A DNA stretch of 56,235 bases, taken from assembly GCA_050260455.1 (NCBI GenBank), contig JBLNCF010000012.1:1-56235 (forward strand), written 5' to 3'. Position 1 is the first letter of the stretch. Every line of letters starts with the position of its first letter. Positions 12,298-48,004 of the stretch are shown here, one piece after another. The stretch comes from Bacillota bacterium. GTDB lineage: Bacteria > Patescibacteriota > Minisyncoccia > Phycocordibacterales > Phycocordibacteraceae. A model generated the notes under the pieces. It did no database searches and was not told the DNA's origin. It was given only the letters and a program-made list of their open reading frames with translations. A program made the translations under genes and the position numbers.

Positions 12298-14271
<1,974 letters not shown>

Positions 14272-14754: not shown

Positions 14755-14801
14755 GTGAGCCTCCCTTTCCACTGCGAACTCTACACGTGCCCTCTAACTT
14801 G

Positions 14802-14875
14802 TCCACCCTCTTGGACTCGAACCAAGAACCGCCGAGGTATAAGCTCGGTGCTCTAACCAATTGAGCTAAGGGTGG
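14802..14875 (-). tRNA. tRNA-Ile, anticodon UAU
   Basis: CCACCCT TA GCTC..GAGC A CCGAG-CTTATAC-CTCGG CGGTT CTTGG-TTCGAGT-CCAAG AGGGTGG A; full cloverleaf; CCA not encoded; TAAAGT -10 box upstream. Confidence 0.95.
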
Positions 14876-14910: not shown

Positions 14911-14936
14911 GAAAAAGCCCCGGCACGTGGCCGGGG
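14911..14936 (-). terminator. Terminator after the methyltransferase
   Basis: ccccggc/gccgggg stem; U-tract on the minus strand. Confidence 0.75.
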
Positions 14937-14949
14937 AGTTCCGAAAGTC

Positions 14950-15549
14950 TTATGGTTTTTGCCACAGGGCATAACCAGGACTGATTCCATCGAAGTACAC
15001 ATAGCTTGTCCCCCGTGCGAGAGGGTCACCATGGCGATGTACTCGGATGTTATGAGCAATGACTGGGCTCTGGGGAAAGATCCGTGCGGGATGCTCTGGC
15101 ACCAGTTCTTCGGACAGGGCAGTGGCTTCGTAGATGCCGCGCCACTTGCCGTGGGTAACAAGCTGGAAATCTTGAGTCACGCGACCAAGATCGTAGCGGG
15201 GATACGACGAGAAGAACAATCCGCCTGGCTTCAAACAGCGCGCCAACTCAAATGCCAACATCTGGGTAGGTCTGACGCAGAAGGGATGAGGGGCGTTTAA
15301 GGTGACGAGATCCAAAGACTCGTCTGCCACTTCAAGCTTTTCGTACTGTGAGGTGATGCGGTGAATGCCAGGTCGCCGCGCCTTGAGCACCTGTGTCAGG
15401 CGTTCGGGCGGCAGGGGTTTAAAGAATGGTCCCAATCCCCACTGGGGTTCCCCGCAAAGAATCAGCATCGGCGTCTCGCGGTTGAGACGCTGGAAATCCT
15501 TCGCGAATGCCAGCGAGCCGGCACCAATGTCTAAAACGGTGTAGACCAT
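14950..15549 (-). CDS. Class I SAM-dependent methyltransferase, divergent
   Basis: VLDIGAGS motif I, DESLDLVTLNAPHP motif IV region, LARCLKPGGLFF; GGAGG 5 nt before ATG 15549. Confidence 0.8.
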   Translation of the reverse strand: MVYTVLDIGAGSLAFAKDFQRLNRETPMLILCGEPQWGLGPFFKPLPPERLTQVLKARRPGIHRITSQYEKLEVADESLDLVTLNAPHPFCVRPTQMLAFELARCLKPGGLFFSSYPRYDLGRVTQDFQLVTHGKWRGIYEATALSEELVPEHPARIFPQSPVIAHNIRVHRHGDPLARGTSYVYFDGISPGYALWQKP

Positions 15550-15592
15550 GCGGCCCTCCGGTGTGAATGTCCGAGCGCACTCTACCAGGCTT

Positions 15593-17758
15593 CTATTCAG
15601 GGTGCACGTGTTCCATGGTCTCGCGGGCAAGTCGTGCGAGCACGGGATGGTTCTTGAGTTCGGCGTCTTCTCTAATTAATGTGGCAGCTTCCGTGCGGGC
15701 TGCTTCCACTAGTTTCATATTCTTTAGTGCTTCCATGGCAATATCCGAGACGCCCCACTGCCGGCTGCCGGTGAGTTCACCTGCACCGCGAAGTGCGAGG
15801 TCATATTCGGCCAGTTCAAAACCGTTCTTAGCTTCCACAAACGCTTTCAATCTATCCTTCGTTGCTTGTCCGTATGATTCAGGAAGTGCAAAGCAATATG
15901 CTTGATTGCTCGAACGAATGACGCGGCCGCGCAATTGATGTAACTGGGCGAGCCCGAACCGTTCTGCCCCCTCAATTAAGATGACAGTCGCGTTCGGTAC
16001 GTTTACTCCCACTTCCACGACCGAAGTTGCGACCAGTATCTGCGTTTCATTCTTCTCGAATCGTTCCATGGCTTCCTCCTTTTCTCGGGGAGTCATCTTA
16101 CTGTGGAGGATATCGATCTCGATATCAGGAAAGACTTCCGTACGGAGACGCTCCGCCTCGGCTTTCACGGATTTCGCTTGAAGTGCGAGTTCCTTGGTCG
16201 GATCAGGTTCGTCGATGCGCGGACAGATGACGTACGCCTGATGTCCTCCTGCGAGTTCATTGCGCACGCGTTCGTATGCAACTTCGCGTTTCTCGGGTCC
16301 AAGCACTTCGGTAATGACGGGCTTGCGTCCTCGAGGCATTTCATCAAGGAGTGAAATGTCGAGATCGCCGTAGATGGTGAGGGCGAGCGTGCGGGGAATA
16401 GGCGTGGCGGTCATGGAAAGGAGGTGGGGCGACACCCCGTCCTTGCGTACCAGTTTCTGACGATGCGCCTTTCCGAAACGGTGCTGCTCATCGATGATGG
16501 CGTACGCAAGGTTTTGGAATTGAAGCGACTTGTACACGAGCGCATGCGTACCGATGACGATGGGAATCTCACCATTTGCTACCCACTTCGCGAACTGCGC
16601 ACGGGAGATACGCGTCGATTCTTCCCTGCGTATCTTGCTTGGGAACTTACGGCACTCGGTGCCTGTGATGAGTCCGATGGAAATGGGATGATCTTTGAAG
16701 TACGAGACAAAGGTGGAGAAGTGCTGCTTGGCGAGAATCTCGGTGGGACACATATACGCGACCTGGAGTGTGCCACTCTTTCTGCCGGGTGGGGTGGAAG
16801 TAGCGACAAGGTATGCGGTTGCTGCGGCCACCGCGGTCTTGCCGCTGCCCACATCGCCTTCAAGCAGGCGACGCATCGGATGGTTGCTCTCAAAATTAGA
16901 GACGATGGTATCAATCGCGCGTTCCTGTGCCGCCGTCGGAGGAAAAGGGAACGATGCGATGAAGTCCCCGAGTGCATCCCTGTTCGCATGCACAGGAAGC
17001 GATTCTTCTCGTGCAGTCATCGCACGCTCCTGCTGCATCGCTACTTGAATCGCAAACACTTCCTGGAACGCGAAACGTTTACGCGCGGCTTCTGCGTCAG
17101 CGAGTTTCTTCGGCGTGTGCATCCACACCAGTGCGGTCGCAAGTGTGGGCAGGTTGTACTTCTTCACAAGTTCCGATGGGAGCGGATCGGGAAGCTGGGT
17201 GTGCGTATCAGCCTCAAGCGCCTTACGTACTGCATGCGTGAGCCAGAGCGAGGAGATACCTTTGCTCTCCGAGTACACGGGATAGAGCGTATCGCCCTCG
17301 GGTAGATTGCCGGCAGCAAAAAGGTTCTCGTGTATTGCCTCCGGTTCGATCGCCGTCTTATCTATTTCTGGATTAGCAAGGTAGCGCGAGGACGCAGAGC
17401 CGGTTACCTTGCCCGTTGCCTTCACGACGAGGCCATCGTGAAGCATCTTTGCCATATAGGGCTGCGAGAACCATCGGAGCTTGATGCGACCGGAGGCATC
17501 CTCGAGCCAGGCTTCTGCCATAGGTCGTTTCGACTTCCATGCTTTCTTCGCTTCGGGTTTTCGGATGGTGCCATAGAGAGTGACTTCGGTGCCGAGCTGT
17601 GCACCTGCAATGGTGCCGGTGGGACCCCCCGATTCATACCGGGCAGGGAAGTGATACAGGAGATCCTTCACCGTTCGGATACCCAGCTTCGCGAGAGCTT
17701 TCTTTTGATCGGGCTTCAACCGCGGGAAACGCTCGGTTACGAGATCAGAGGGCTGCAT
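15593..17758 (-). CDS. recG: ATP-dependent DNA helicase RecG
   Basis: LLEGDVGSGKT, IGTHAL, IIDEQHRFG, MTATPIPRTL, LHQLRGRV, DLALRGAGE; start moved to ATG 17758 (TATACT 6 nt upstream). Confidence 0.98.
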   Translation of the reverse strand: MQPSDLVTERFPRLKPDQKKALAKLGIRTVKDLLYHFPARYESGGPTGTIAGAQLGTEVTLYGTIRKPEAKKAWKSKRPMAEAWLEDASGRIKLRWFSQPYMAKMLHDGLVVKATGKVTGSASSRYLANPEIDKTAIEPEAIHENLFAAGNLPEGDTLYPVYSESKGISSLWLTHAVRKALEADTHTQLPDPLPSELVKKYNLPTLATALVWMHTPKKLADAEAARKRFAFQEVFAIQVAMQQERAMTAREESLPVHANRDALGDFIASFPFPPTAAQERAIDTIVSNFESNHPMRRLLEGDVGSGKTAVAAATAYLVATSTPPGRKSGTLQVAYMCPTEILAKQHFSTFVSYFKDHPISIGLITGTECRKFPSKIRREESTRISRAQFAKWVANGEIPIVIGTHALVYKSLQFQNLAYAIIDEQHRFGKAHRQKLVRKDGVSPHLLSMTATPIPRTLALTIYGDLDISLLDEMPRGRKPVITEVLGPEKREVAYERVRNELAGGHQAYVICPRIDEPDPTKELALQAKSVKAEAERLRTEVFPDIEIDILHSKMTPREKEEAMERFEKNETQILVATSVVEVGVNVPNATVILIEGAERFGLAQLHQLRGRVIRSSNQAYCFALPESYGQATKDRLKAFVEAKNGFELAEYDLALRGAGELTGSRQWGVSDIAMEALKNMKLVEAARTEAATLIREDAELKNHPVLARLARETMEHVHPE

Positions 17759-37194: not shown

Positions 37195-37265
37195 AGCGGG
37201 GTAGAGGAGAGGTACCTCGGGAGGCTCATAACCTCCAGACGCCGGTTCGATTCCGGCCCCCGCAA
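37195..37265 (+). tRNA. Initiator tRNA-fMet (CAU)
   Basis: A1xA72 mismatch, A11-U24, GGAGG-CTCATAA-CCTCC, GCCGG-TTCGATT-CCGGC; TTGCTT-N16-TAGTAT promoter upstream. Confidence 0.92.
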
Positions 37266-37271
37266 CATGGA

Positions 37272-47930: not shown

Positions 47931-48004
47931 GCTGGTGTAGCTCAGGTAGTTAGAGCATGGGACTCATAAACCCAAGGTCGGAGGTGCAAGTCCTCCCACC
48001 AGCA
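47931..48004 (+). tRNA. Elongator tRNA-Met (CAU)
   Basis: GCTGGTG/CACCAGC, CTCATAA loop, GGAGG-TGCAAGT-CCTCC; paired 1-72, C11-G24. Confidence 0.88.

Follow-up and report, generated by a model that had tools for sequence, protein, structure and literature searches.

A tRNA-Ile with a UAU anticodon as the AUA decoder of a TilS-less Patescibacteria genome and its relatives

The stretch of DNA analysed here (the window: all 56,235 nucleotides of contig JBLNCF010000012.1, assembly GCA_050260455.1) contains, next to ftsH, a gene for an isoleucine tRNA with the anticodon UAU, tRNA-Ile(UAU), which is the only tRNA of its genome able to read AUA. The features of the window used below are the following.

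14802-14875, minus strand: tRNA-Ile(UAU) gene, 74 nt (ARAGORN, Rfam RF00005, cloverleaf, 28 aligned orthologues with covarying stems)
14839-14841, minus strand: anticodon UAU, with U34 at 14841, A35 at 14840 and U36 at 14839 (direct sequence reading)
12298-14271, plus strand: ftsH, the conserved neighbour of the tRNA (list of open reading frames (ORFs); FtsH matches in PDB, E=9e-182; ftsH-tRNA linkage)
14918-14936, minus strand: putative terminator-like hairpin followed by a T run (promoter/terminator scan; consensus match only)
37195-37266, plus strand: initiator tRNA-fMet(CAU) (ARAGORN structure; comparison with initiators of TilS-positive relatives)
47931-48004, plus strand: elongator tRNA-Met(CAU), the AUG-reading competitor (Rfam; elongator-Met clade, support 99/95)

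ARAGORN called tRNA-Ile(tat) at 14801-14875 on the minus strand, and Rfam RF00005 matched 14802-14875 of the same strand over its full length (69 bits, E=5e-13; gathering score 29). The minus-strand sequence, CCACCCUUAGCUCAAUUGGUUAGAGCACCGAGCUUAUACCUCGGCGGUUCUUGGUUCGAGUCCAAGAGGGUGGA, folds into a cloverleaf with an acceptor stem running from C1-G72 to U7-A66 (C4-G69 and C5-G68 included), the D-stem GCUC/GAGC, the anticodon stem CCGAG/CUCGG, the T-loop UUCGAGU and the discriminator base A73; CCA is not encoded. The anticodon loop C32-U33-U34-A35-U36-A37-C38 occupies 14837-14843. An earlier note on this DNA had placed a tRNA-Ile(UAU) at 14802-14875 without naming the strand, and had described a clean cloverleaf with the loop CU-UAU-AC, A73, C4-G69 and C5-G68; all of these were found in the folded sequence, and direct reading confirmed the position that it gave for the anticodon.

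Conservation argues that the gene is read correctly. C32, U33, the UAU anticodon and A37 are invariant in 28 aligned orthologues and in 48 compared UAU tRNAs; A73 is invariant in the orthologues as well, where all four stems show compensatory changes. The UAU tRNA was called in 27 of the 29 loci fetched from relatives, and 249 of the 301 genomes in the class sample match the corresponding sequence pattern (see below), so the wobble T is not a sequencing error. The case considered by the earlier note, that the anticodon at 14839-14841 is really CAT, is contradicted by the TAT of these orthologues.

The resemblance to E. coli ileX, which the earlier note had seen in the frame of the tRNA, held in part. 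The acceptor sequence CCCU/AGGG matches that of the E. coli tRNA-Ile annotated by PGAP with the anticodon CAT (ileX type), but the whole-length identity is 68%, and the pairs C4-G69 and C5-G68 are not kept in orthologues, where acceptor sequences such as GCGAGU, GGGCGU and GGGCAU are found. Whole-length likeness to ileX was rejected, the best E. coli BLAST match of the window tRNA being a tRNA-Arg (74%); hence the resemblance is confined to the acceptor end. Since variation of the acceptor pairs is expected after the loss of TilS, C4-G69 and C5-G68 are uninformative on ancestry.

The host is a Kaiserbacteria-like bacterium of the Candidate Phyla Radiation (CPR; Patescibacteria), class Paceibacteria; a public metagenome-assembled genome (MAG) of 'Candidatus Kaiserbacteria' carries a tRNA identical to one of a same-genus relative. 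The genome comprises 690 kb in 18 contigs with 54% G+C and is rated about 98% complete and 0.1% contaminated. Of its 46 tRNA genes, four serve the AUN box: Ile(GAU), Ile(UAU) and two tRNAs with the anticodon CAU. The first CAU tRNA is the initiator, with an A1xA72 mismatch, A11-U24 and the two ends AGCGGGG...CCCCGCAAC, as in the initiators of relatives. The second is the elongator tRNA-Met, with the signature GGGA-CUCAUAA-NCCC and followed by tRNA-Asp, again as in relatives. As the two CAU tRNAs are thus initiator and elongator Met, no Ile2-type CAU tRNA was found among the 46 tRNAs of this draft genome.

TilS was searched for in six frames with the profiles PF01171 and TIGR02432 and the cut-offs of the models. 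PF01171 was above the cut-off in 14 of 14 control genomes and TIGR02432 in 10 of 10 bacterial controls, while neither profile had a match above the cut-off in this genome. The lone weak match of the TilS model was the 345-aa MnmA, and a motif scan identified two PP-loop proteins only, MnmA and an asparagine-synthase-like ORF. The place upstream of ftsH that is usual for tilS is occupied here by smpB on the opposite strand. The genome-wide search for tilS and for a second Ile-type CAU tRNA, which the earlier note had named as the way to check its inference that lysidine was replaced by U34, therefore found neither, and the inference is borne out.

An assembly error at T34, or a tilS gene and an Ile2(CAU) tRNA hidden in the missing 2% or so of the genome, would make the UAU tRNA an artefact or redundant. 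The assembly is indeed a draft of 18 contigs, but TAT is kept in orthologues across the genus, order, class and phylum; 276 of 301 class genomes, single-contig ones included, lack TilS; TilS and the UAU pattern occur together in none of 115 TilS-positive genomes of the phylum; and the usual place of tilS has been taken by smpB. We consider this explanation extremely improbable, and tRNA-Ile(UAU) is a genuine, indispensable AUA decoder.

AUA is in regular use in this genome: ATA makes up 8.0 per 1000 codons and 13.8% of isoleucine codons and occurs in 518 of 604 long, non-overlapping ORFs. The ftsH gene of the window (657 codons) has no ATA codon, compared with the genome average of 8 per 1000, which may reflect avoidance of AUA in that gene. 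The meaning of AUA was therefore read from the ftsH genes of 28 TilS-less relatives, whose codons were aligned to the FtsH residues of this genome. The ATA codons of the relatives face I in 56% of cases, V in 21%, L in 12% and M in 2%; the profile of ATT and ATC is the same, whereas ATG aligns with M in 59% of cases. Because ATA behaves like ATT and ATC and not like ATG, AUA means isoleucine in this organism, as judged from these codon alignments.

These data bear on the alternative that AUA has been reassigned, for example to methionine as in many mitochondria, and that the tRNA is charged with another amino acid than isoleucine. Both AUA and AUG are, in principle, within reach of a UAU anticodon, and code changes are known in CPR lineages (UGA and CGA/CGG in Absconditabacteria, PMC8629427). 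The alignment of ATA with I, V and L, however, contradicts reassignment, as do the existence of a separate elongator tRNA-Met and the fit of A73 and of A37 following U36 to isoleucine tRNAs, so that we give this alternative hardly any credence.

To see how far the arrangement extends, genomes were surveyed for TilS and for the tRNA(UAU) pattern TAGCTNAN{4,9}RRAGCNNNNNNCTTATA, with the reversed pattern as a control (2 matches in the class sample); the counts thus rest on a sequence pattern and not on isotype-specific tRNA models. None of 40 relatives, from the genus and from 16 other families of the order, had TilS above the cut-off. The two larger samples gave the following counts.

Class sample, 301 genomes: TilS in 25 (five families), UAU pattern in 249, both in at most 2
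Phylum sample, 301 genomes: TilS in 115, UAU pattern in 168, both in 0

The 276 class genomes without TilS include single-contig genomes, and one of the two co-occurrences in the class was not tRNA-like. In the phylum sample 186 genomes lacked TilS, and 168 of these matched the UAU pattern. Sub-cut-off matches of the TilS model in TilS-less class genomes scored 25-54 bits and fell in ORFs of about 230-550 aa. TilS-positive Patescibacteria carry a third CAU tRNA, 90-92% identical to the E. coli tRNA-Ile with the CAT anticodon (PGAP). In the sampled Patescibacteria TilS and tRNA(UAU) are mutually exclusive, and most of the phylum has UAU without TilS (about 60% of the species sampled). The trait that the earlier note had ascribed to one lineage is thus real here, but its scale was underestimated. 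A stricter pattern with C38, applied to one genome per GTDB species, gave at least 80 loci; among the matches listed, 79 of 80 were called tRNA-Ile(tat) by ARAGORN, and they belong mostly to Kaiser-, Taylor-, Nomura-, Uhr-, Woese-, Levyi- and Daviesbacteria and to MAGs labelled Saccharibacteria.

A single isoleucyl-tRNA synthetase (IleRS) is encoded in the genome (contig C15, 68557-71994, minus strand, 1145 aa). In PDB comparisons it scored 757 bits with IleRS2 of P. megaterium (8C8W) and 748 bits with the T. thermophilus enzyme (1ILE), about 540 bits with eukaryotic enzymes and 313-334 bits with type-1 enzymes. It has a DUF5915 C-terminus, and no match to the zinc-finger domain was found in it; a complete His_Phos_1 domain (residues 513-671) is nested in the catalytic core. 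From its sequence the enzyme is assigned to type 2 (eukaryote/archaeal-like). Close type-2 homologues, with 42-62% identity in a comparison of the N-terminal half with the 301 phylum genomes, occur in TilS-positive and TilS-less genomes alike. The type of IleRS was rejected as the trigger of the switch for this reason, and a type-2 IleRS is better regarded as a permissive background.

Gene order is the main source of evidence on the origin of the UAU tRNA. ftsH adjoins it here, in 21 of 29 loci from relatives of the same order, in seven of nine Paceibacteria genomes from other families and in a single genome outside the class; without TilS the order is usually ftsH - tRNA-Ile(UAU) - tRNA-Val(GAC). 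In 18 of 20 TilS-positive genomes tilS stands next to ftsH, and in four TilS-positive Patescibacteria (G345, G395, G361 and G376) the tRNA immediately downstream of ftsH is an Ile2-type CAU tRNA; in G376 tRNA-Val(GAC) comes next, so that the whole order matches. The same ftsH site therefore holds either Ile2(CAU) or UAU, which favours an in-place C34-to-U change in an ftsH-linked Ile2(CAU) gene together with the loss of the adjacent tilS as the more likely origin. The pair G31-C39 is also common to UAU tRNAs (32 of 48) and Ile2 tRNAs (9 of 12), whereas typical GAU tRNAs lack it and most often have A31-U39 (22 of 30).

Alternatively, a G34-to-U change in the major tRNA-Ile(GAU) could have given rise to the UAU tRNA, a route for which the tilS suppressor of B. 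subtilis provides a precedent (PMC3575796). The window tRNA has a mean identity of 0.60 to Ile2(CAU) tRNAs (60%, maximum 72%) and of 0.58 to typical Ile(GAU) tRNAs, and is closest to the atypical tRNA-Ile(GAU) of its own genus (75-80%). UAU tRNAs of the common Paceibacteria type (G061, G082 and G352) are up to 83-86% identical to typical GAU tRNAs and up to 75-77% to Ile2, and share with typical GAU tRNAs a long D-loop and a GGGCGUG acceptor. In a maximum-likelihood tree of 111 AUN-box tRNAs, built from few alignment columns, the UAU tRNAs are scattered: the main Paceibacteria group arises from a grade of GAU tRNAs, while those of several other lineages (G533, G448, G359, G390 and G454) cluster tightly with Ile2(CAU) (support 99/97). 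Approximately unbiased (AU) tests rejected neither a single clade of UAU and Ile2 tRNAs (p=0.23) nor a single clade of all UAU tRNAs (p=0.064). Apart from the ftsH-linked Ile2 genes, the G31-C39 pair and the clustering of the UAU tRNAs of these other lineages with Ile2, it speaks against a GAU origin that the GAU tRNA of the genus is itself atypical (C38, UAU-like variable loop), and the similarity between the window tRNA and this GAU tRNA may therefore run the other way. Descent from GAU seems to us rather unlikely. The descent from Ile2 suggested by the earlier note is supported by gene order and by G31-C39; the sequence tree does not settle it, and the closest match of the tRNA is the GAU tRNA of its own genus.

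The atypical tRNA-Ile(GAU) gene itself (contig C15, 26106-26179, minus strand) has C38 and the UAU-like variable loop GCGGUC, as do its counterparts in relatives (L071-L075); in typical GAU tRNAs of the phylum, position 38 is A and the variable loop AGGUC. Both an atypical and a near-typical GAU gene are present in G061, a genome of the same family. The major isoleucine tRNA of the genus may have been replaced by a copy of a UAU-type gene in which U34 was changed to G.

Another way to avoid Met codons would be needed, as the earlier note had inferred. The UAU tRNAs differ from the other tRNAs of the box at position 38. In 48 UAU tRNAs position 38 is C in 36, U in five and A in seven (pyrimidine in 41 of 48); the 62 typical GAU, Ile2(CAU), elongator-Met and initiator tRNAs used for comparison have A there without exception. 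The 32-38 pair tunes the affinity of a tRNA on the ribosome, so that pyrimidine 38 is a candidate for the feature that disfavours pairing of U34 with the G of AUG.

Among the modification enzymes, MnmA, TsaD and TGT are present. No MnmG was found in this genome or in 30 relatives, where only matches to the FAD-binding motif were seen, and the motif scan of this genome found neither MnmE nor MnmG motifs. In the tRNA set nearly every tRNA with U34 has a partner with C34, and most four-codon boxes have G34, U34 and C34; no tRNA-Arg(ACG) is present among the 46 tRNAs, an absence already described for CPR bacteria (PMC8629427). It seems that codons are decoded here without recourse to U-G wobble or to modification to xm5U or inosine.

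The arrangement most likely works as follows. The type-2 IleRS, with its C-terminal anticodon-binding module of the eukaryote/archaeal kind, would charge tRNA-Ile(UAU) with isoleucine, and AUA would be read through a U34-A pair, while AUG would be read by the separate elongator tRNA-Met(CAU), whose gene is present. Misreading of AUG would probably be limited by competition from tRNA-Met, by the t6A modification at position 37 (TsaD being present), by a wobble U without xm5 (MnmE and MnmG being absent) and by tuning of the loop through pyrimidine 38 opposite C32; properties of the ribosome like those of Mycoplasma mobile possibly add to the rejection of AUG. The arrangement most likely arose from an ftsH-linked tRNA-Ile2(CAU) by C34-to-U and loss of the adjacent tilS.

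A different explanation is that U34 is modified (by 2-thiolation through MnmA, as pseudouridine or in an undescribed way) so that the tRNA is restricted to A-ending codons and AUG is rejected chemically. 2-thio-U disfavours pairing with G, and in the eukaryotic tRNA-Ile(UAU) positions 34 and 36 are pseudouridine. Of the known U34-modifying enzymes MnmA alone has been retained, and the conserved change at position 38 could be a recognition element for a U34-modifying enzyme. The known substrates of MnmA (the Lys, Glu and Gln tRNAs), however, to our knowledge all have U35, whereas the window tRNA has A35, and the absence of MnmE and MnmG also weighs against U34 modification. A possible modification was raised for M. 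suis by Taniguchi et al. (PMC3575796), but in M. mobile, the sole bacterium examined, U34 is unmodified (PMC3575796). Chemical rejection of AUG is conceivable, though we doubt it.

A 226-aa ORF that shares the strand of the tRNA and lies immediately upstream of it (14950-15630) has a weak match to S-adenosylmethionine-dependent methyltransferases (Methyltransf_11, 28.5 bits). It was rejected as a candidate U34 modifier: its domain matches are generic and weak, and the methyltransferase-like ORF is not kept beside the tRNA in relatives, no homologue being found there in the 29 loci. The terminator-like hairpin separates this ORF from the tRNA, which suggests that transcription of the tRNA starts at a promoter of its own within the approximately 40 nt upstream.

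Taken together, the account of a TilS-less AUA decoder that is charged by a type-2 IleRS and stems from an ftsH-linked Ile2 tRNA is, in our view, very probable. Several observations weigh against it. The origin could not be taken from the sequence tree, which has too few columns, the AU tests rejecting none of the competing hypotheses; the Ile2 gene of TilS-positive Paceibacteria belongs to a Phe-Gly tRNA cluster and is not found beside ftsH; and type-2 IleRS is found in TilS-positive Patescibacteria too, so the switch is not explained by it. T. thermophilus has a type-2 IleRS together with a TilS-model match above the cut-off, hence a type-2 IleRS alone does not imply the use of UAU. About 10% of TilS-less genomes in the class and phylum samples have no strict match to the UAU pattern, which we tentatively attribute to stringency of the pattern or incompleteness of the genomes. 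Finally, pyrimidine 38 is missing in seven of the 48 UAU tRNAs, and the position-38 sample is weighted towards one order.

The cluster of the TilS-positive Paceibacteria (L053, L055 and L056) has the order Leu(GAG)-Val(UAC)-Phe(GAA)-CAU-Gly(GCC), the CAU tRNA being Ile2. In the TilS-less genome G117 (L131) the same cluster passes straight from Phe to Gly with a gap of 35 nt, so this Ile2 copy has been cleanly deleted.

Comparable systems have been described. Nine TilS-less species in three clades were known in 2013 (PMC3575796), and the TilS-less Bifidobacterium and Neorickettsia have an IleRS of the eukaryote type (Taniguchi et al. 2013, PMC3575796). Like the genome analysed here, these two lack tilS, have a tRNA-Ile bearing the anticodon TAT as a substitute for Ile2(CAU), and a type-2 IleRS without the Zn-binding C-terminal domain. 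Patescibacteria differ from them in being an unrelated lineage, in the spread of the trait (about 60% of sampled phylum species versus a few genera) and perhaps in the pyrimidine-38 signature of their UAU tRNAs, and the IleRS of this genome is set apart by its nested histidine-phosphatase domain.

M. mobile has been characterised biochemically: its U34 is unmodified, its ribosome rejects AUG and its type-1 IleRS was adapted through Arg865 (PMC3575796). It resembles the present case in being reduced, in lacking tilS, in reading AUA with UAU and in having a dedicated tRNA-Met for AUG; t6A37 is expected here as in the M. mobile system, whereas the IleRS is of type 1 there and of type 2 here.

The lysidine system of E. 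coli (ileX, tilS) serves the same codon, and A73, G31-C39 and, as far as this genome goes, the acceptor CCCU/AGGG are in common. Unlike in ileX, the wobble base is encoded as T, which makes lysidine impossible, TilS is absent and position 38 is C and not A. Within the phylum, the lysidine locus tilS-ftsH-tRNA-Ile2 of TilS-positive Patescibacteria is the same neighbourhood as that of the UAU tRNA in the window. In the B. subtilis tilS suppressor tRNA-Ile1(UAU), a single wobble change to U replaces lysidine (Fabret 2011; Kohrer 2014, PMC3919564). It is a model for an origin by G34U, obtained in the laboratory and in a type-1 IleRS background; the state described here occurs in nature, is ancient and has become fixed in thousands of species, and its gene order speaks for an origin from Ile2.

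The kind of system is thus already known, while the host lineage and the scale appear to be new: no report tying CPR/Patescibacteria to tilS loss or lysidine was found among the top-ranked full-text literature matches. According to recent papers, about 98% of bacterial genomes have tilS (PMC12514573) and tRNA-Ile(UAU) is found only in 'rare cases' (PMC13752280); TilS has also been proposed in this literature as a broad antibacterial target. Because about 90% of the TilS-less species of the class and phylum samples carry tRNA-Ile(UAU), alternative decoding of AUA is common in nature. CPR genomes are also a plausible source of many of the 371 orphan tDNA-Ile(TAT) sequences reported from metagenomes in 2013 (Taniguchi et al., PMC3575796). 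In these genomes the question of how AUG is avoided by a U34 tRNA can be studied in natural replicates numbering in the hundreds, and the switch is linked to a background of type-2 IleRS. Neither TilS nor Ile2(CAU) should be expected in such genomes by annotation pipelines or by marker sets for completeness.

We tentatively suggest, as a possibility that we would not favour at present, that most Patescibacteria solve the AUA/AUG problem by the tRNA itself (pyrimidine 38, t6A37 and a U34 free of xm5) or by a novel U34 modification recruited by the pyrimidine. If so, pyrimidine 38 opposite C32 would weaken the anticodon loop such that U34 pairs productively with A only, and the rule for position 38 would amount to a transferable principle for designing U34 tRNAs that decode A only. 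A large part of bacterial diversity could then dispense with lysidine, and the orphan metagenomic tDNA-Ile(TAT) sequences of 2013 would be largely CPR genes.

Both CAU tRNAs of the window have unusual features. The initiator has A1xA72 in place of C1xA72 and an odd D-arm (GAGG/CCUC); the bottom of its anticodon stem has no more than two G-C pairs in a row, together with A29-U41. In tRNAs position 55 is nearly universally U (pseudouridine-55); the T-loop of the elongator tRNA-Met, UGCAAGU, has G at this position, as does the elongator tRNA-Met of G385. The elongator also has an A31xA39 mismatch, and A31 stands opposite G39 or A39 in 13 of 13 elongator Met tRNAs compared.

Some genomes of the surveys combine elements of both systems. 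G187 (family f81) has TilS, a match to the UAU pattern and two tandem Ile2-like CAU tRNAs beside tilS in a tRNA array; other genomes of this family have three UAU-pattern matches each. G483 (family f121) has a sub-threshold TilS-like ORF (86.8 bits, 257 aa) and a UAU tRNA. Both G187 and G483 may represent transitional states.

Outside the CPR, UAU tRNAs of 89-95 nt with C38 and, following the anticodon stem, a long extra arm of some 20 nt were found at five loci: two in Actinomyces spp. (L173 and L243), two in Acidobacteriota MAGs (L177 and L211) and one in a Planctomycetota MAG (L196). The long extra arm is an abnormal architecture for an isoleucine tRNA. Relatives of Actinomyces are known hosts of cultured Saccharibacteria.

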